Position numbers and translations under genes: made by a program
Part shown: one piece after another, positions 3 to 55,540 of the stretch
How the letters are laid out: every line of letters starts with the position of its first letter
How positions within the stretch are numbered: position 1 is the first letter of the stretch
Notes under the pieces: model-generated
The model's database searches: none
Told to the model about the DNA's origin: nothing
The model's input: only the letters and a program-made list of their open reading frames with translations
Source: Escherichia phage EC128
Sequence record: ON210139.1
Reading direction: 5' to 3' (one strand)
Length of the DNA stretch: 64,000 nucleotides

Positions 3-686
3 AATGTCGATTATGGCGATAAAGATTTTTATGTATTTGACATTATTGTCACTACAGAAAGTGGTGATGTGACTTATGTCGACGATTATATGATGGAATC
101 ATTCTGCAATACATTTAAATTTAAAATGGCTCCACTTTTAGGTCGCGGTAAATTTGAAGAGCTTATTAAATTGCCAAATGATTTAGATTCTGTCGTTCAA
201 GATTATAATTTTACAGTAGACCATGCTGGATTAGTTGATGCAAATAAATGCGTTTGGAATGCTGAAGCAAAAGGCGAAGTATTTACTGCTGAAGGATATG
301 TATTGAAACCTTGTTATCCTTCTTGGATGCCTAATGGCAATCGTGTAGCTATTAAATGCAAGAACTCTAAATTTAGTGAAAAGAAAAAGTCTGATAAGCC
401 TATTAAAGCTAAAGTTGAGCTGTCAGAAGCTGATAATAAATTGCTGGGAATTTTAGCTTGCTACGTTACACTGAACCGAGTAAATAACGTTATTTCTAAA
501 ATTGGCGAAATTGGTCCTAAAGATTTTGGAAAGGTGATGGGGCTAACTGTTCAAGATATTTTGGAAGAAACTTCTCGTGAAGGTATTACTCTAACTCAAG
601 CAGATAATCCTTCTTTGATTAAAAAGGAATTAGTTAAAATGGTACAAGATGTACTTCGTCCAGCTTGGATTGAGTTGGTGAGCTAA
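3..686 (+). CDS. rnlB: RNA ligase 2-like protein, C-terminal part (5' end outside window)
   Basis: Frame is open from the window edge to the stop at 686; convergent with gene 24 and sharing a hairpin terminator; identity assigned from recalled T4 gene order (24 then rnlB), not verified by alignment. Confidence 0.5.
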
Positions 687-36229: not shown

Positions 36230-36302
36230 TGGGAATTAGCCAAGTTGGTAAGGCACTGGATTTTGATTCCAGGATGCAAAGGTTCGAGTCCTTTATTCCC
36301 AG
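36230..36302 (+). tRNA. tRNA-Gln (anticodon UUG)
   Basis: Cloverleaf with acceptor TGGGAAT/ATTCCCA, anticodon loop TTTTGAT, T-arm GGTTCGAGTCC. Confidence 0.85.
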
Positions 36303-36303
36303 C

Positions 36304-36390
36304 GCGAGAATGGTCAAATTGGTAAAGGCACAGCACTTAAAATGCTGCGGAATGATTTCCTTGTGGGTTCGAGTCCCACTTCTCGCACCA
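36304..36390 (+). tRNA. tRNA-Leu (anticodon UAA), type II with long variable arm, CCA encoded
   Basis: Acceptor GCGAGAA/TTCTCGC, anticodon loop CTTAAAA, long variable arm, T-arm GGTTCGAGTCC. Confidence 0.85.
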
Positions 36391-36395
36391 AATTT

Positions 36396-36469
<74 letters not shown>

Positions 36470-36479
36470 ATTTAATTTA

Positions 36480-36553
36480 CTCCGTGTAGCTCAGTTTGGT
36501 AGAGCGTCTGCTTTGGGAGCAGAATGTCGTAGGTTCAAATCCTGCCACGGAGA
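36480..36553 (+). tRNA. tRNA-Pro (anticodon UGG)
   Basis: Acceptor CTCCGTG/CACGGAG, D-arm TAGCTCAGTTTGGTAGAGC, anticodon loop TTTGGGA. Confidence 0.85.
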
Positions 36554-36555
36554 CT

Positions 36556-36642
36556 GGAGGCGTGGCAGAGTGGTTTAATGCACCGGTCTTGAAAACCGGC
36601 AGTCGCTCCGGCGACTCATAGGTTCAAATCCTATCGCCTCCG
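36556..36642 (+). tRNA. tRNA-Ser (anticodon UGA), type II
   Basis: Acceptor GGAGGCG/CGCCTCC, anticodon loop CTTGAAA, long variable arm. Confidence 0.85.
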
Positions 36643-36644
36643 TT

Positions 36645-36720
36645 GCTGATTTAGCTCAGTAGGTAGAGCAACTCACTTGTAATGAGAAGGTCGGCGGTTC
36701 GATTCCGTCAATCAGCACCA
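36645..36720 (+). tRNA. tRNA-Thr (anticodon UGU), CCA encoded
   Basis: Acceptor GCTGATT/AATCAGC, anticodon loop CTTGTAA, T-arm GGTTCGATTCC. Confidence 0.85.
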
Positions 36721-36721
36721 A

Positions 36722-36793
36722 GGCCCTGTAGCTGGAAGGTTCAAGCAAGCGACTCATAATCGCCAGATGGTGGTTCAATTCCACCCAGGGCCA
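36722..36793 (+). tRNA. tRNA-Ile (anticodon CAU, presumably lysidine-modified as in T4)
   Basis: Acceptor GGCCCTG/CAGGGCC, anticodon loop CTCATAA; T4 encodes a CAU-anticodon tRNA-Ile (established knowledge). Confidence 0.75.
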
Positions 36794-36834
36794 TATTTTG
36801 GGAACATAAATACTCTTAGAAATAGGAGATATTT

Positions 36835-37500
36835 ATGTTCCATTACACTTATAAAATAACAAATAAAATTAATAATAAAATTTATATTGGTGTGCATTCT
36901 ACCGAAAATTTAGATGATGGATATATGGGTTCTGGTAAATTATTAAAAAGAGCCCAAGATAAATATGGTATAGAAAATTTTTCTAAAGAAATATTAGAGT
37001 ATTTTGATGATAAAGAATCTATGCTTGAAGCCGAGAAAAATATTGTCACAGAAGAGTTTTTAAATAGACCAGATGTGTATAATTTAAAACTTGGCGGTGA
37101 AGGTGGATGGGACCATATAAATATTCCTGGGATGCTAAACCAGAAGAAAGACGCTAGTTTAAAAGGAGCTAAATCGTTTAAGTCACGTTTTAAAAATGAT
37201 ATTTTACTTCAAGAAAAATATCGTAAACATGGTTCAAATGTATTTAAACGCTTGTGGTCAACTCCTGAATACAGGGAAAAATTTTTAAATAATAGCAGAT
37301 TTTTAAATAAGCATCATACTCCTGAAACTATTAATAAAATGAAAGAATCTCACGCCAGAAATAAACACCAACAGGGCGAAAAGAATTCCCAATTTGGTAT
37401 GATGTGGATTCATTCATTAGATGAAAAAGTTTCTAAACGTATTAAGAAAACTGACCCAATTCCAGAAGGATGGTTTAAAGGTCGAAAAATGAAATTTTAA
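36835..37500 (+). CDS. segB: GIY-YIG homing endonuclease SegB inside the tRNA cluster
   Basis: 221 aa ORF with GIY-YIG motif YTYKITNKINNKIYIGVHS; located between the tRNA subclusters as in T4. Confidence 0.85.
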   Translation: MFHYTYKITNKINNKIYIGVHSTENLDDGYMGSGKLLKRAQDKYGIENFSKEILEYFDDKESMLEAEKNIVTEEFLNRPDVYNLKLGGEGGWDHINIPGMLNQKKDASLKGAKSFKSRFKNDILLQEKYRKHGSNVFKRLWSTPEYREKFLNNSRFLNKHHTPETINKMKESHARNKHQQGEKNSQFGMMWIHSLDEKVSKRIKKTDPIPEGWFKGRKMKF

Positions 37501-37503
37501 TTA

Positions 37504-37580
<77 letters not shown>

Positions 37581-48903: not shown

Positions 48904-49197
48904 ATGGCCTTAAAAGCAACGGCACTATTTGCCATGCTAGGATTAGCGTTTGCTTTATCTCCACCAATTGAAGCGAATGTCGATCCTCATTTTGATAAAT
49001 TTATGGAATCTGGTATTAGACACGTTTATATGCTTTTTGAAAACAAAAGCGTAGAATCATCTGAACAGTTCTATAGTTTTATGCGAACGACTTATAAAAA
49101 TGACCCGTGCTCTTCCGATTTTGAATGTATAGAGCGAGGCGCGGAGATGGCACAATCATACGCTAGAATTATGAACATTAAATTGGAGACTGAATGA
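48904..49197 (+). CDS. rI: Lysis inhibition regulator RI (periplasmic antiholin)
   Basis: 97 aa ORF with N-terminal signal-anchor MALKATALFAMLGLAFALS; T4 position and length. Confidence 0.85.
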   Translation: MALKATALFAMLGLAFALSPPIEANVDPHFDKFMESGIRHVYMLFENKSVESSEQFYSFMRTTYKNDPCSSDFECIERGAEMAQSYARIMNIKLETE

Positions 49198-49584: not shown

Positions 49585-49608
49585 AGTCTCCTTCGGGAGA
49601 CTTTTTTC
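49585..49608 (+). terminator. Rho-independent terminator after rI.1
   Basis: AGTCTCC-ttcg-GGAGACT hairpin followed by TTTTTTC. Confidence 0.75.
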
Positions 49609-50429: not shown

Positions 50430-50472
50430 GTTTACAAGTTGGCAAGGTTATGGTATAGTAATCTTGTCAACT
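50430..50472 (+). promoter_or_regulatory. Early promoter inside a stem-loop (PeSL-like)
   Basis: -35 GTTTACA, -10 TGGTATAGT flanked by the imperfect inverted repeat AGTTGGCAAG...CTTGTCAACT. Confidence 0.6.
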
Positions 50473-50592: not shown

Positions 50593-50777
50593 TGACAAGT
50601 GAGCAGGCTTTTAAATTAAGAGAATTAATTGAGACGTATAGTAAAGCTGTTCATACATCAACAATTATTGATGAATCAGCTTTCTCCGGACATGCTAACA
50701 AGATTAAATACAAAACTCTTATGGAAGAAGCTAAAGTAAATCTTGATTCTTATATTGAAACTTTAATTGGTAAATAA
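50592..50777 (+). CDS. Hypothetical protein
   Basis: 61 aa ORF with AAGGAG RBS. Confidence 0.45.
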   Translation: MTSEQAFKLRELIETYSKAVHTSTIIDESAFSGHANKIKYKTLMEEAKVNLDSYIETLIGK

Positions 50778-50778
50778 T

Positions 50779-50928
50779 ATGAAAGCTGTAATTGAAACAA
50801 CTGATTTGTTCGGTGACCTAGTTATCGAAAAACGCGGTAATGTATACGTTCTGACGCAGGAAGACGATAGTATTACTATTCTTCCTATGGAACTGGCTGC
50901 GATTTTATCTTATGCTCCCTCAAACTAA
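50779..50928 (+). CDS. Hypothetical small protein
   Basis: 49 aa ORF (below track cut-off). Confidence 0.3.
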   Translation: MKAVIETTDLFGDLVIEKRGNVYVLTQEDDSITILPMELAAILSYAPSN

Positions 50929-51307
50929 TATTACAGGTGACCTCCAAGTTCGTTTTTATCGTGGCCTTTACGGCGGTAATATTGAAACTGAATTTATGTG
51001 TCTTTCTATCAACAATTGGGCAACATTCGTTGCCAAGGTGAAAGAATTCTTAGAATCTGAAACAGTCGAAACACCCGAAAAGGCTAAACTTCAATGGGCT
51101 AAAGATCGCGGTGCTAACATTATTAATCCAGTAGCTGCAAACTATACTACGACTTTGGATGTCAAGACTTCTTATGAAGATGGCGATGTCGTACTTGTTC
51201 GCCAAAATGATGATTCTCGAGCACATATTGTCACATTTACCAAAGACGAAGCTATTGCGCTAAAGACTTATCTTGATTCTGTCATTCCAACTATGATTTC
51301 AAAGTGA
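50912..51307 (+). CDS. Hypothetical protein
   Basis: 131 aa ORF; start uncertain, no clear RBS. Confidence 0.4.
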   Translation: MLPQTNITGDLQVRFYRGLYGGNIETEFMCLSINNWATFVAKVKEFLESETVETPEKAKLQWAKDRGANIINPVAANYTTTLDVKTSYEDGDVVLVRQNDDSRAHIVTFTKDEAIALKTYLDSVIPTMISK

Positions 51308-51313
51308 GGAAAT

Positions 51314-51841
51314 ATGTTTATTTCAAGTGGAAGTGGTTTAATTCGTGTTGAATTTAAAAATGACATCTTTCTTATTCAAGGAGATGATATTATTAAAATG
51401 AGTTATGACGAAATCAAGAAAATTTGTCATGCTCTTGAAAGTCATGGAAAAGTGAACGCTGTTATTGATATTGGCGATTTATGGGTGACACTTTATGAAG
51501 TATCCGAAGGATTTAACATTGAAGATGAAAATAACATTTTAGCTATTGATAAAAGAAGTGATTTGTTTGATGTATTAAAAGTTTATGAACAGTCAAATGG
51601 CGGAAGAAAAGCTGCATTGATTTATCAAAAACCACATTCATGTGGAACTGCTTCAATCATTTCAAATATTGAAGATGAAGATGAAGTTGATACTTATATG
51701 TGTGTTTTAAAAGCTGGTGGTGACCGTCATCCGGATTTTATTTCTATTCGTCAAAACAATGGAGAAATTTCATTATCAAAATCAGAAGCTGAAGCTATGA
51801 TTAAGTATTTAACAACTGTTACGCCTTCAATGAAAGGATAA
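51314..51841 (+). CDS. Hypothetical protein
   Basis: 175 aa ORF with GAGGA RBS. Confidence 0.5.
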   Translation: MFISSGSGLIRVEFKNDIFLIQGDDIIKMSYDEIKKICHALESHGKVNAVIDIGDLWVTLYEVSEGFNIEDENNILAIDKRSDLFDVLKVYEQSNGGRKAALIYQKPHSCGTASIISNIEDEDEVDTYMCVLKAGGDRHPDFISIRQNNGEISLSKSEAEAMIKYLTTVTPSMKG

Positions 51842-51843
51842 TT

Positions 51844-52305
51844 ATGATTATTAATGAAAACTCTTGGCACTATAAATTATTCAAATTGTTTAACGATGAA
51901 TGGCAACGACCTAAGACACTATGCGCATATTTTTGGTCTATTGCTATTCCTACATTTTTCGTTTCTATTTTTGGATGTGCTATACTCGTAGGGCTAACAA
52001 TTATTTGCGCAGAAAGCCTACAGCGTTGGCTTATTTTTGGTAGTTTATGGACTTTGCTTCCATCAGCATTTATACTTGCGCTTTTGGTTGTTTTACTTAT
52101 TATCGGTTCATTTGTTATTCCTGCACATTTGCGTGAAAAATATAAAGATTATAAATGGAAAAAGGATTATGCTTTACACGTAGAAAATATTGATAGGGCG
52201 TATAAAGGTTTACCTCCTATTCAACCAAAGAAATCGATTATCGTTGAATTTTTAAAAGCTCGTAAAGCTAAAGTATGTCCTGTTATTGAATATAAGGCTG
52301 AATGA
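51844..52305 (+). CDS. Integral membrane protein (two to three TM helices)
   Basis: 153 aa ORF with hydrophobic helices FWSIAIPTFFVSIFGCAILVGLTIICA and LWTLLPSAFILALLVVLLIIGSFVIP. Confidence 0.55.
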   Translation: MIINENSWHYKLFKLFNDEWQRPKTLCAYFWSIAIPTFFVSIFGCAILVGLTIICAESLQRWLIFGSLWTLLPSAFILALLVVLLIIGSFVIPAHLREKYKDYKWKKDYALHVENIDRAYKGLPPIQPKKSIIVEFLKARKAKVCPVIEYKAE

Positions 52306-53315
52306 TGAAAACAGTAATGAAAAGTTATTTTGGCAGTCATCTTTATGGAACTTCTACTCCAGAATCTGATGTAGATTTTAAAGAAATCTTTGTTCCTCCT
52401 GCTCGCGATATTCTTATCGGAAGTGTCAAAGAGCACATGAGTAAAAACACTAACAACACATCATCTAAAAACACTAAAGATGATATTGACCATGAACTAT
52501 ACAGTCTTAAATATTTCTTTAAATTAGCAGCAGATGGTGAAACTGTAGCATTGGATATGCTTCACACTCCACCTGAACTAGTGGTTAAATCTGATTTGCC
52601 TGATGTGTGGAAGTTTATTCAAGACAACCGTTCTCGTTTTTATACGACTAACATGAAATCATATTTAGGATATGTCCGCAAGCAAGCTTCTAAATACGGT
52701 GTCAAGGGTTCTCGTTTGGCTGCATTACGTGATGTATTGAAAGTAGTTAATCAAATCCCTGAGCAATGGATTGATTACCAAGAAGATGGTTCTATTAAGC
52801 AGCGTCGCACTAAAGTTGAAGATATTAAGCATCGTCTTCCAGAAAACGAATTCTGTGAATGGGTGTTCCATAATCATGAGAAAACAGGCCCACAAACGTT
52901 CTACACTGTGTTGGGTCGTAAATATCAGACAACTCTTTCTCTTATTGAGCTTAAGCAGTCACTGAACAAATTAGATGCTGAATACGGTGAACGTGCTCGT
53001 AAGGCCGAAGCCAATGAAGGTATTGACTGGAAAGCTCTGAGCCATGCCTGCCGTGGTGGACTTCAACTATTGGAAATTTACAAAACTGGCGACTTGATTT
53101 ATCCACTCCAAGATGCTCCATTTATTCTCGACGTGAAGTTGGGTAAACATCCATTTAAAACAGTTCAAGAGTTTTTGGAAGATGTGGTCGATCAAGTAGA
53201 AGCAGCATCTACTGAAGCTTCTAAGAACGGTATGCCTAAAACAGTAGACATGAGTTTCTGGGATGACTTCCTTGAGAAGGTCTATCTTGAAAACCACCGA
53301 AGTTATTATAAATGA
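52302..53315 (+). CDS. Nucleotidyltransferase-fold protein (Pol-beta-like NTase)
   Basis: N-terminal YFGSHLYGTSTPESDVDFKEIFV fits the NTase G[GS]-x9-13-D-x-[DE] motif; a candidate third acidic residue in ETVALDMLH. Confidence 0.6.
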   Translation: MMKTVMKSYFGSHLYGTSTPESDVDFKEIFVPPARDILIGSVKEHMSKNTNNTSSKNTKDDIDHELYSLKYFFKLAADGETVALDMLHTPPELVVKSDLPDVWKFIQDNRSRFYTTNMKSYLGYVRKQASKYGVKGSRLAALRDVLKVVNQIPEQWIDYQEDGSIKQRRTKVEDIKHRLPENEFCEWVFHNHEKTGPQTFYTVLGRKYQTTLSLIELKQSLNKLDAEYGERARKAEANEGIDWKALSHACRGGLQLLEIYKTGDLIYPLQDAPFILDVKLGKHPFKTVQEFLEDVVDQVEAASTEASKNGMPKTVDMSFWDDFLEKVYLENHRSYYK

Positions 53316-53317
53316 TA

Positions 53318-53343
53318 GGGAGCCTTCGGGCTCCCTTTTTTTA
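53318..53343 (+). terminator. Rho-independent terminator
   Basis: GGGAGCC-ttcg-GGCTCCC hairpin followed by TTTTTTT. Confidence 0.8.
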
Positions 53344-53366
53344 TTTCAAAAATTTTTCACAAAACG

Positions 53367-53400
53367 GTTTACAAGCATAAAGCTTTATGGTACTATACAA
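53367..53400 (+). promoter_or_regulatory. Early promoter (PeSL-like module with conserved leader)
   Basis: -35 GTTTACA, -10 TGGTACTAT, and the leader GGTACTATACAACTATCAACTACTGATACAGA shared with the module at 38611. Confidence 0.6.
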
Positions 53401-53433
53401 CTATCAACTACTGATACAGATTTGGAGAATAAA

Positions 53434-54402
53434 ATGAAAACTGTAACTATCAATAAGGGTATCTACTTCGGTAAAGAAATCTCTGGAACTTTTGAGCTCT
53501 TAGGTGAATGGTTCCCAGATAATGCTCCGGTAGATGCACAAGGAGATGGTAAAGTTTTTGTTGAAATTGACGGTAAGCGTCGCGGTGTTTGGGTTTACAA
53601 ATCAGACATTTCATATGATGGTGTAAAAGTTGAAGAAGTTAAAGAATCATATGAAGATATGAAAACCCGCATTAATAAAAGATTTAATGTTATGGGAATG
53701 ATGACGAATGGTATTATTAACGGAAACATTCGTTCATTAATTATCTCTGGTGCGGCGGGTATTGGTAAAACGTATTCTTTAGATAAAGCTTTGAATAAAG
53801 CAAATGATAATGGATACATTGAATATAAAAGCATTAACGGTAAAATCTCCGGTATCGGTCTTTATGAACAACTTTGGAATAATCGTGAAGAGAATTCTGT
53901 CCTTTTGATTGATGATGTGGATGTTTTCTCTGATATGGACATTCTTAATCTTCTGAAAGCTGCTCTGGACACTGGAGAGACCCGTAAAGTCTGCTGGAGC
54001 ACTGCATCTTCTTACTTAGAAGAAAAAGGCATTGAGCGTGAGTTTGAATTTAAAGGAACGATTGTTTTTATCACAAACGTTGACATTGACCGCGAATTAG
54101 ACCGTGGTACTAAACTTGCTCCACATTTACAAGCATTAGTGTCCCGCTCAGTTTATTTAGATTTGGGTGTTCACACTAATGAAGAAATTATGGTCAGGGT
54201 TGAAGATGTTATTCTTTCAACTGACATGATGCAAAAGCGCGGTCTTTCTGATGAAGAAACTTATAAAGCATTATCATGGATGAAAGTCAATGTTAATCGT
54301 TTACGCAATGTTTCACTGCGTACTGCTCTTTATCTTGCTGACTTTATTATGACCGACAAAAACGGTTGGGAAGAAATCGCTGAAACAGTATTATTAAAAT
54401 GA
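53434..54402 (+). CDS. AAA+ ATPase
   Basis: Start at MKTVTINKG after a GGAG RBS (track ORF starts upstream); Walker A GAAGIGKT, Walker B VLLIDDVD, sensor-like FITNV. Confidence 0.65.
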   Translation: MKTVTINKGIYFGKEISGTFELLGEWFPDNAPVDAQGDGKVFVEIDGKRRGVWVYKSDISYDGVKVEEVKESYEDMKTRINKRFNVMGMMTNGIINGNIRSLIISGAAGIGKTYSLDKALNKANDNGYIEYKSINGKISGIGLYEQLWNNREENSVLLIDDVDVFSDMDILNLLKAALDTGETRKVCWSTASSYLEEKGIEREFEFKGTIVFITNVDIDRELDRGTKLAPHLQALVSRSVYLDLGVHTNEEIMVRVEDVILSTDMMQKRGLSDEETYKALSWMKVNVNRLRNVSLRTALYLADFIMTDKNGWEEIAETVLLK

Positions 54403-55118
54403 AAAAATATTTTACTATCTATAAAACTGAAATATTAAATTTAAAGACAGGTATTAAGAAATACTATTATGGTCGACATATAACTAATAATATCAATGAT
54501 TCGTATGTTGGTAGTGGAAATTATATAGAACGTGTAAAAGTGTCAAATGACCACATATTATCAAAAACGGTTTTAGAAGTTTTTGATAATTATGATAAAA
54601 TGGTACAAGCTGAAATATTATATATCATGGCAGGTAAATTGAAATATGGGAAAAACTGTGTTAACCTGTCATACGGGGGTGAAGGAGGAAAGGTTGCAGA
54701 TGAAACTAGGATAAAATGCAAAAAGCATTCTATAAATTTATGGAAAAATCCTAATCATATACAGCATATGAAGAAAAAGATGAAAGAGGTCACATCCACG
54801 CCGGAAGCTAAATTAAACACTTCAATAAAAACTTCGCAACGATATAAGGACCCGGTTTTTGTTAGAAAAGTTAGTAATATTATTAAAAAGAAACTAAGCA
54901 ATCCTGTAGTAAAAGAAAAGCATATTAATGGAATTAAAGCTGCAAAGCGTTCTCATTTAACTATATGGCAGTATGAAGATGAATTATTCGAGCTCTGGAA
55001 AGAAACTAAATGTGGATGGAGAAAATTTACAAAGGAAGCTATAAAACACGGATATCCAAATGAACCGTATCGTAGTATGGTATCAACTTTTCAGAAAAGA
55101 CATTTAGAAGAATCCTAA
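54399..55118 (+). CDS. Seg-like GIY-YIG homing endonuclease
   Basis: N-terminus YFTIYKTEILNLKTGIKKYYYGRH plus VGSG...NLSYGGEGG aligns with the SegB ORF at 36835 (YTYKIT..IYIGVHS, MGSG..NLKLGGEGG). Confidence 0.75.
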   Translation: MKKYFTIYKTEILNLKTGIKKYYYGRHITNNINDSYVGSGNYIERVKVSNDHILSKTVLEVFDNYDKMVQAEILYIMAGKLKYGKNCVNLSYGGEGGKVADETRIKCKKHSINLWKNPNHIQHMKKKMKEVTSTPEAKLNTSIKTSQRYKDPVFVRKVSNIIKKKLSNPVVKEKHINGIKAAKRSHLTIWQYEDELFELWKETKCGWRKFTKEAIKHGYPNEPYRSMVSTFQKRHLEES

Positions 55119-55200
55119 GACAAAAAGGCAGTTCAGAAATAGATTATATGGACTGCCATTAAAAAGATGACTAGAATTAAACTGGTGAATGGAGGTAGTG

Positions 55201-55505: not shown

Positions 55506-55540
55506 GTTTACAAGACCGTTCCTCTGTGGTACTATACAAC
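55506..55540 (+). promoter_or_regulatory. Early promoter (PeSL-like module with conserved leader)
   Basis: -35 GTTTACA, -10 TGGTACTAT and leader GGTACTATACAACTATCAACTAC. Confidence 0.6.

Follow-up and report, generated by a model that had tools for sequence, protein, structure and literature searches.

The window analysed here is a 64,000-nucleotide (nt) stretch of Escherichia phage EC128 (ON210139.1), a T-even (Tequatrovirus-like) genome segment in which the region 51300-55200 shares 97-98% identity with the Escherichia phages FL44, AR1, RB32, RB14 and T6. The subject of this study is nrdC.11, an open reading frame (ORF) that the initial annotation had read as a phage-encoded nucleotidyltransferase (NTase) in the accessory island between rI and the nrdC genes. 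The ORF is present there as described, encoding 337 amino acids (aa) from the first ATG with the protein start MMKTVMKSYFGSHLYGTSTPESDVDFKEIFV, and the nrdC.x genes do lie downstream of rI (Table 1). Most database entries begin the gene at the second ATG (52305) and list a protein of 336 aa, and the ATGATGA at the head of the gene shares bases with the stop codon of the membrane-protein ORF upstream. Full-length identity of 97% to nrdC.11 of phage T4T marks the gene as the ortholog of T4 nrdC.11, and the gene order of the region (tk, rI.1, rI, rI.-1, small mobD.x ORFs, nrdC.11, nrdC.10, nrdC.9) is that of the T4 early region, where T4 nrdC.11 holds the same place ahead of nrdC.10. The T4 protein is catalogued as an uncharacterised 38.9 kDa protein (SP:P39242, as cited in the annotation of KVP40) and the RefSeq product name is 'nucleotidyltransferase'. 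Orthologs were matched to the COG3541 nucleotidyltransferase by Nolan et al. 2006 (PMC1524935), and a 2025 preprint lists T4 NrdC.11 as a member of RlaP, in cluster 5 of the PF10127 sequence similarity network (SSN), with function unknown (PMC12776372). nrdC.11 is an already known and annotated member of a named family, and the function that we propose for it below has already been published as a hypothesis.

That NrdC.11 is an RlaP-family NTase is close to certain, and on its sequence it is a divergent long form of RlaP, the RNA-ligase-associated Pol-beta family (PF10127). The Pfam RlaP profile ('RNA repair pathway DNA polymerase beta family') is its only significant Pfam match, scoring 44.4 bits against a cut-off of 23 (E 2.2e-11) over aa 7-135, which correspond to profile positions 23-142 of 249, and the same profile also matches 39 of 40 diverse NrdC.11 homologs. 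PHROG 388, 'nucleotidyltransferase', matches at E 3.7e-137. The homolog family is large: clustering at 90% identity gives 2904 groups, and of the 3499 representatives at 50% identity, 831 fall below 1e-30. Sequence searches of the PDB with the NrdC.11 protein and with a 40-sequence profile returned nothing significant, the crystal structure of the Pseudomonas fluorescens enzyme (PfRlaP) evidently being absent from the copy searched. The initial annotation had named a missing NTase fold in structure prediction as the outcome that would speak against it; the AlphaFold2 model, built on a 40-sequence alignment, shows NTase topology with a mean predicted local distance difference test score (pLDDT) of 93.8 and a predicted template modelling score (pTM) of 0.80, and comprises an NTase core of alpha/beta type at the N-terminus, then a helical region, a beta-rich insert at aa 153-210 and a C-terminal helical domain. 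The best solved-structure matches of this model in Foldseek are NTases and its structure matches in BFVD are viral 'nucleotidyltransferases', and the Pfam match, the confident model and the fold matches together back the reading of a phage-encoded Pol-beta-fold NTase. The BFVD relatives include giant-virus NTases (Klosneuvirus, Terrestrivirus, Yasminevirus), some of them fused to nuclease-annotated proteins, as well as baculovirus HE65 proteins, and judging from these structure matches RlaP-like modules may be widespread in eukaryotic large DNA viruses too.

To place the catalytic residues, conservation was counted over the query and 146 representatives of 50%-identity clusters (147 sequences), with 18 canonical short-form RlaP sequences recovered from bacterial loci as the reference. 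The Pol-beta-like signature that had been read from the letters alone, a G-S followed by Asp-x-Asp, is retained in 146-147 of the 147 sequences, far beyond chance: G11-S12 is present in every one, and D23 and D25, which align to D49 and D51 of canonical RlaP, are kept in all except a single sequence that is gapped there. Alignment of NrdC.11 to the 18 canonical sequences by hhalign covers aa 3-96 at a probability of 91.8% and E 7.5e-7. Two further acidic positions lie within this core. Position 63 is acidic throughout (143 D, 4 E), its counterpart in canonical RlaP being the invariant D88; position 85, which falls opposite the invariant E110, is D/E in 144 of the 147 (143 D, 1 E, 2 N and 1 A). 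In the Pol-beta NTase fold the third catalytic carboxylate is expected on a strand. D63 is likely to be the third metal ligand, completing a predicted catalytic triad of D23, D25 and D63, because it lies on a predicted beta-strand, keeps an acidic residue in every sequence and is matched by the invariant canonical D88. D85, which lies within ETVALDMLH and had been put forward as the candidate third catalytic residue, appears to have been misassigned and is probably not a third ligand, because it sits in the predicted helix 81-87 and its canonical equivalent is a glutamate, E110. A paper on the structure of PfRlaP likewise describes three strictly conserved aspartates (PMC12776372).

Outside the core, R231, K244, H248, R251, Y132 and P268 are essentially invariant in the 147-sequence alignment, and the near-invariant residues of the C-terminal domain are candidates for NTP or RNA binding. 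The intervening insert is predicted to contain strands at aa 155-159, 165-169, 185-192, 196-203 and 206-209, and the fragment aa 153-210 searched by itself against Pfam matched no family above noise.

Table 1. Features of the window around nrdC.11 and elsewhere, with the tandem long-form and short-form RlaP genes of bacterial loci (handles beginning with L; coordinates are those of each locus).
Feature	Position	Strand	Evidence or remark
RNA ligase 2 (rnlB), C-terminal part, cut by the left end of the window	3..686	+	T4_Rnl2_C E 4.8e-24, RNA_ligase E 2.9e-8
Eight tRNA genes (Gln, Leu, Gly, Pro, Ser, Thr, Met-type CAT, Arg)	36230-37580	+	
rI	48904-49197		nrdC.x genes downstream
y05I-like protein	51314-51841		upstream of nrdC.11
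Membrane protein	51844-52305		upstream of nrdC.11
nrdC.11, long-form RlaP-family nucleotidyltransferase	52302..53315	+	PF10127 match, PHROG 388, identity to T4T
Predicted N-terminal Pol-beta NTase core, aa 1-98	52302..52595	+	predicted strands 3-10, 24-31, 45-49, 62-68; predicted helices 69-77, 81-87
hG[GS] motif, G11-S12	52332..52337	+	conserved in 147/147; aligned to G37-S38 of canonical RlaP
D23-x-D25, first two predicted catalytic carboxylates	52368..52376	+	start of strand 24-31
D63 in DDIDHE, likely third catalytic carboxylate	52488..52490	+	predicted strand 62-68
D85 in ETVALDMLH, fourth conserved acidic residue	52554..52556	+	predicted helix 81-87
Variable beta-rich insert, aa 153-210	52758..52931	+	between helical segments; many indels among homologs
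C-terminal helical domain, aa 214-336	52941..53312	+	near-invariant R231, D242, K244, H248, R251, P268, K279
Intrinsic-terminator-like hairpin, AGGGAGCC-TTCG-GGCTCCCT then TTTTTTTATTT	53317..53346	+	terminator scan
Promoter-like site, GTTTACA-17-TACTAT with upstream TG	53368..53396	+	promoter scan, 9/12 matches with TG
nrdC.10, P-loop NTPase, 322 aa	53434..54402	+	Walker A GAAGIGKT, Walker B LLIDDVD
seg-like homing endonuclease gene	54399-55118		PHROG 314; overlaps nrdC.10 stop; inserted segment 54382-55114
Tandem long and short RlaP genes	L082:5992-7802; L077:2956-4895; L039:6004-7746		
Further tandem long and short RlaP genes	L010, L012, L023, L027, L029, L035, L036, L049, L057, L060, L063, L068, L070, L075, L084, L085		

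RlaP takes its name from its association with RNA ligase genes (Burroughs and Aravind 2016, as cited in PMC12776372 and PMC7824862), and its activity has been demonstrated for the short form only, in enzymes from P. fluorescens and P. aeruginosa. These add one or two nucleoside monophosphates (NMPs) to RNA 3'-OH ends, favour cleaved-tRNA mimics and Mn2+, leave DNA and proteins unmodified (E. coli proteins were not labelled) and raise the aminoacylation of repaired tRNA that had lost one anticodon-loop nucleotide (PMC12776372). In total RNA they label not only fragments but also full-length tRNA and rRNA, they show little specificity for the nucleoside triphosphate (NTP), and dATP is also taken as a donor by Pseudomonas RlaP; the authors of the preprint propose that RlaP is the antidote to 'smart', nucleotide-excising ribotoxins such as RloC (PMC12776372). 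In the PfRlaP crystal structure, the NTase domain and a C-terminal helical domain form a cleft, with the last helix packing back on the NTase domain (PMC12776372).

Like the canonical RlaP of the Pseudomonas rtcB-rlaP-rtcA operons, NrdC.11 carries G-S, DxD and a third Asp in its NTase core, followed by a conserved acid in the next helix (E110 there, D85 here), but only ~95-130 N-terminal residues of the two can be aligned. The long form is 60-80 residues longer, carries the beta-rich insert, and has a C-terminal domain with conserved residues of its own (R231, K244, H248, R251). In the model, the NTase core is followed by helical segments for which there is no alignment to canonical RlaP beyond the core. 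When alternative hhalign alignments were sought for a second, C-terminal segment, the probability was 0.3%, and the second-domain matches between hidden Markov models (HMMs) were colinear but insignificant (canonical ~127-215 against long-form aa ~200-300). A shared K-x3-[Y/H]-x2-R spacing (K244/H248/R251 in the long form, K167/Y171/R174 in the short) was seen by eye only. Phages carry one form or the other: 1564 phage records, mostly Straboviridae, contain the long form, and 80, mostly jumbo phages and none of them T-even, contain the short form. The window carries the long form only. In jumbo phages, the distribution of RlaP mirrors that of RNA ligases (PMC7824862).

The bacterial gene neighbourhoods of the long form link it to RNA repair. 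A scan of one genome per prokaryotic species yielded 80 loci, bacterial or archaeal, that encode full-length relatives sharing 30-53% identity, in which neighbours within 6 kb were called by clustering of adjoining ORFs and by Pfam scans. RtcB, Pnkp, Hen1 or Ro60 was found within that distance of the long-form NTase gene at 14 of the 80 loci (RtcB at nine, Ro60/TROVE at four), and at a fifteenth, L075, the ORF directly upstream clusters by BLAST with the RtcA of locus L039. Spacing can be very tight, with RtcB ending 4 nt ahead of the NTase gene at L077 and a kinase-phosphatase-Rnl1-type ligase fusion ending 3 nt ahead of it at L051. Locus L082 has the order Hen1, Pnkp, long NTase, short RlaP and RNA ligase, and the island at L039 comprises Ro60, RtcB, RtcA, long NTase, short RlaP, Hen1, an AAA_5 ATPase and Pnkp. 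Given these RtcB, Pnkp, Hen1 and ligase neighbours, the RNA-ligase association holds for the long-form clade itself and not only for the characterised clade, and both forms occur in bacteria with RtcB, RtcA, Pnkp/Hen1 and other RNA ligases.

The same loci revealed a second recurrent arrangement. In 19 of the 71 loci with enough downstream sequence, the next gene after the long NTase gene, in the same orientation, encodes a canonical short RlaP, and the three tandem short proteins that were checked are full-length PF10127 matches (E 1e-51 to 1e-67). The pair is found in some cases inside RtcB/RtcA/Hen1-Pnkp/Ro60 islands and in others alone among housekeeping genes, often with no further repair gene close by, and we found no mention of such a module in the accessible literature. 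Judged by their sequences and pairing, the long and short forms are paralogs with related but presumably distinct, non-redundant roles.

The best explanation that we can offer, and one we hold with moderate confidence, is that NrdC.11 is an RlaP-type RNA nucleotidyltransferase that would feed the tRNA repair carried out by T4 Pnkp and the Rnl ligases. Of its parts, action on RNA 3' ends is probable, and for the full scenario of tRNA healing, filling and sealing we see roughly even chances. RloC-type anticodon nucleases remove the wobble nucleotide of the tRNA that they cleave, and the likely substrate of NrdC.11 would be the 5' half of a tRNA that such a host nuclease had cut in the anticodon loop and then trimmed. 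T4 Pnkp would act first, stripping the 2',3'-cyclic phosphate or 3'-phosphate and phosphorylating the 5' end. The C-terminal domain and the insert of NrdC.11 would then hold the broken RNA through conserved basic residues, D23, D25 and D63 would bind an NTP with two divalent metals, and one or two NMPs would be added, without a template, to the 3'-OH. With the missing nucleotide restored, T4 Rnl1 or Rnl2 would seal the loop. NrdC.11 would thus be the 'fill' between 'heal' and 'seal', and the phage could do without it on laboratory hosts that have no such nucleases. The genes for T4 Pnkp and Rnl1 lie elsewhere in T-even genomes; Rnl2 is the only ligase in the window, and the RNA-ligase association of nrdC.11 exists in the phage at the level of the genome only. 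T4 tolerates deletion of the segment nrdC.11-mobD.3 (PMC9825161), and this dispensability is consistent with a conditional, host-dependent function in counter-defence. A more distant phage homolog, 28% identical to NrdC.11, is encoded within a large tRNA gene cluster of Rhodobacter phage RcXuper (L004:5001-5990), where tRNA-Tyr lies directly downstream and many more tRNA genes are found within 5 kb, a placement that hints at a tRNA-related role.

Several observations weigh against this explanation. The available biochemistry comes from SSN cluster 1a, and the likeness to NrdC.11 that sequence comparison can detect is the ~95-residue core; the C-terminal two-thirds, where substrate determinants would be expected, cannot be aligned to canonical RlaP and includes an insert specific to the subfamily. 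The long form may differ in function from the characterised enzyme, as the frequent tandem pairing suggests, and since the two are tandem paralogs the biochemistry of the short form is only partly transferable to the long. About 80% of the bacterial loci have no recognisable RNA-repair neighbour. In the phage itself, nrdC.11 adjoins no ligase, kinase or phosphatase gene, its immediate neighbours being genes for the membrane protein, the y05I-like protein, the P-loop NTPase and the homing endonuclease, and Rnl2 lies 51 kb away. In a related proposal, the long form would be a functionally distinct partner of the short RlaP, with its own C-terminal substrate domain, that in T-even phages supplies by itself the fill-in step against RloC-type nucleases. 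We regard this as a tentative possibility. Less likely still is a variant in which the target of this distinct partner is not RNA but, for example, a host HEPN nuclease, or in which it synthesises a nucleotide signal.

NrdC.11 could be an RNA 3'-end NTase with a role other than break repair, tailing RNAs of host or phage to change how stable they are, or repairing or maturing the 3' (CCA) ends of the eight phage tRNAs or of host tRNAs attacked at their acceptor end. Fold and family would be the same as in the repair scenario, the Pseudomonas enzymes do act on full-length tRNA and rRNA with little NTP specificity (PMC12776372), the phage has eight tRNA genes of its own, the RcXuper homolog sits among tRNA genes, and most bacterial loci are without ligase neighbours. 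We nevertheless consider such a role unlikely, as those contexts that are informative are ligase, healing and Ro60 systems, which act on internal breaks. T4 depends on the CCA-adding enzyme of its host to mature those of its tRNAs that lack an encoded CCA, and this speaks against CCA repair by a phage enzyme. The characterised RlaPs stop after one or two nucleotides, unlike tailing enzymes (PMC12776372). Phage CCA-adding enzymes share with NrdC.11, in its proposed activity, the template-independent addition of NMPs to an RNA 3'-OH by the Pol-beta catalytic triad and the restoration of RNA ends (PMC7824862). NrdC.11 differs from them in having no PolyA_pol or CCA Pfam match and in lacking the head, neck and body domains of CCA specificity, and the little NTP specificity of characterised RlaPs is likewise unlike CCA enzymes (PMC12776372).

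The initial annotation had looked to other branches of the fold, naming cGAS/DncV-like and SMODS signal synthases, minimal NTase (MNT) antitoxins and AbiE-type toxins, and for none of these did comparisons with Pfam, PADLOC, NCBIfam and Foldseek give HMM or fold support. The PADLOC models for CBASS CD-NTases, SMODS and AbiE do not match NrdC.11 even at E<=1, Pfam gave no Mab-21, SMODS, AbiEii or NTP_transf_2 match at E<=0.1, and the structures of cGAS, DncV and OAS are not among the top fold matches. Nor does gene context speak for them, with no signal effector or receptor gene in the neighbourhood of nrdC.11 in the window or at the 80 related loci and no AbiEi-type antitoxin gene or HEPN gene adjoining nrdC.11. 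CD-NTase/SMODS, MNT, AbiEii and KNTase-like roles were rejected on this combination of HMM, fold and gene-context evidence, and experiments of the CBASS, Thoeris or Pycsar type, which the initial annotation had envisaged, are unlikely to be informative.

Of these readings, the one that fares best has NrdC.11 as an MNT-like protein modifier in the manner of type VII antitoxins, AMPylating and thereby neutralising a host HEPN-type RNase, for example the nuclease domain of PrrC or RloC, or another HEPN toxin. The minimal NTase core is similar to MNT-type enzymes: a Foldseek match to the MNT-HEPN complex 7ae9 (E 0.34) and a weak NCBIfam MntA match over the GS motif point that way. The MntA match, however, reaches 13.3 bits against a cut-off of 60 and spans 18 residues, NrdC.11 is 337 aa long against ~100-140 aa for MNTs, and E. 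coli proteins are not labelled by the Pseudomonas enzymes (PMC12776372), all of which, with the missing PADLOC match and HEPN neighbour, makes this very unlikely. Neither MNT-HEPN systems nor the kanamycin NTase ANT(4') match NrdC.11 at the HMM level; they act on a protein and a small molecule, respectively, and the HEPN Rx4-6H motif is absent from NrdC.11.

It is highly improbable that NrdC.11 is a signal synthase or decoy, resembling cGAS, DncV or SMODS enzymes or the oligodeoxyadenylate-producing HalB of Hailong, that would trigger or silence host defence. The fold class is common to CD-NTases, and dATP is accepted as a donor by the Pseudomonas enzyme (PMC12776372). The closest solved structures are Hailong HalB (PDB 9dbh) and an Exiguobacterium NTase-like protein (3c18). 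The likeness to HalB is limited to a generic NTase core: 115-127 residues align to these two structures at 11-15% identity, with all Foldseek E values >1e-3, TM-scores of 0.25-0.40 and no sequence-level relationship. HalB is paired with the effector HalA in its defence system, nothing comparable exists at nrdC.11, and in bacteria the long form is found in RNA-repair contexts and not with CBASS, Thoeris, Pycsar or Hailong systems. A toxin-type NTase (AbiEii/MenT) that blocks tRNA charging by adding nucleotides to acceptor stems and so helps to shut off translation in the host, or a small-molecule NTase like those acting on kanamycin or lincosamides, would have in its favour the common Pol-beta fold and, for the toxin, the extension of full-length tRNA 3' ends by RlaPs in vitro (PMC12776372), but can be all but dismissed, given the lack of an AbiEii match (Pfam, PADLOC) or AbiEi-like partner, structure matches confined to the core at 10-12% identity, operon contexts that are repair systems, and the want of any rationale for antibiotic modification in a lytic phage.

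Downstream, nrdC.11 does have a predicted terminator of its own, as had been claimed. One base past the stop codon, a stem-loop of 8 pairs, 6 of them G-C, occupies 53317-53336 and is followed by a T-run; as a predicted intrinsic terminator it is convincing, and it would close a transcription unit in which nrdC.11 is the last gene. The further claim, an independently promoted AAA+ ATPase beyond it, stands in part. Ahead of nrdC.10 lies a promoter-like site that resembles the T4 early-promoter consensus, and an independent early promoter for nrdC.10 is plausible on its sequence; such matches are not enriched in the region, with 40 found against 38.7 expected in shuffled sequence. Promoter-like sites of nearly the same sequence (TTTACA and TATAGT or TACTAT separated by 17 nt, with an upstream TG) occur at 50431-50459, 53368-53396 and 55507-55535, each preceding a group of plus-strand genes, and terminators with a hairpin, T-run and the same TTCG loop occur at 49585-49602 and 53317-53336. 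The repetition of these predicted elements suggests short early transcription units.

The ATPase assignment is likewise upheld in its motifs and weaker in its family. NrdC.10 has Walker A and Walker B motifs, while its Pfam AAA and STAND matches all fall below their cut-offs, and orthologs were weakly matched to AAA ATPases by Nolan et al. 2006 (PMC1524935). Its start codon, ATG 53434, has GGAG ahead of it and gives the 322 aa annotated in T4; the 379-aa ORF at 53263-54402 in the program-made ORF list begins inside nrdC.11 and reads through the terminator. The protein is 99% identical to NrdC.10 of T4T and belongs to PHROG 1250, of unknown function. Its N-terminal region is beta-rich and is accompanied by a P-loop domain, yet the protein has no assignable family; its single-sequence model has a pLDDT of 37, and a PDB profile search returned nothing significant. 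NrdC.10 occurs in 1312 phage records, jumbo phages included, and is 66% identical to its counterpart in Acinetobacter phage KARL-1 (L003:5613-6617), NrdC.11 being 53% identical to its own. A link between the NTase and this downstream ATPase is not conserved outside close relatives. The two genes adjoin in T4 and KARL-1, nrdC.10 is absent from the NTase loci of KVP40 and RcXuper and is not beside an RlaP gene in Vibrio, Erwinia and other distant phages that carry it, and it is not among the neighbours of the NTase gene at the bacterial long-form loci. We rejected NrdC.10 as a functional partner, adjacency being limited to close relatives; it is a syntenic neighbour only.

The nrdC.11-nrdC.10 block (52301-54381) is 97% identical to T4 and is bounded on both sides by variable segments, with breakpoints that fall at gene boundaries. 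In T4, the HNH homing endonuclease gene mobD lies directly upstream of nrdC.11, whereas the window has unrelated ORFs there, those of 50604-52300 standing in place of T4 mobD.1 and mobD, and, unlike T4, has a seg-like endonuclease gene inserted after nrdC.10. NrdC.11 and NrdC.10 are labelled 'thioredoxin' in many phage records, and in some 'HNH homing endonuclease' or 'molybdopterin-guanine dinucleotide biosynthesis protein MobD'. These labels look like errors that spread from the gene names nrdC.x and mobD, not from homology.

The idea that RlaP enzymes restore a lost nucleotide is already in the literature for the family (PMC12776372). What we add is that the T4-type proteins make up a long-form clade of their own, which itself occurs within RNA-repair operons, that this clade is frequently paired with a canonical RlaP with which it is probably not redundant, and that its catalytic triad is likely to be D23/D25/D63. 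The repair of PrrC-cleaved tRNA-Lys by T4 Pnkp and Rnl1 is the case on which the concept of RNA repair as phage counter-defence was founded, and RloC-type nucleases have been proposed to defeat this repair by also removing the wobble nucleotide. If the long form is indeed a distinct partner of the short RlaP, T4 tRNA repair would become a three-step pathway of healing, filling and sealing, with a layer of counter-counter-defence. If NrdC.11 restores the missing nucleotide, this would close the loop of the arms race and would give a function to a gene that has been kept in >1500 sequenced phages.

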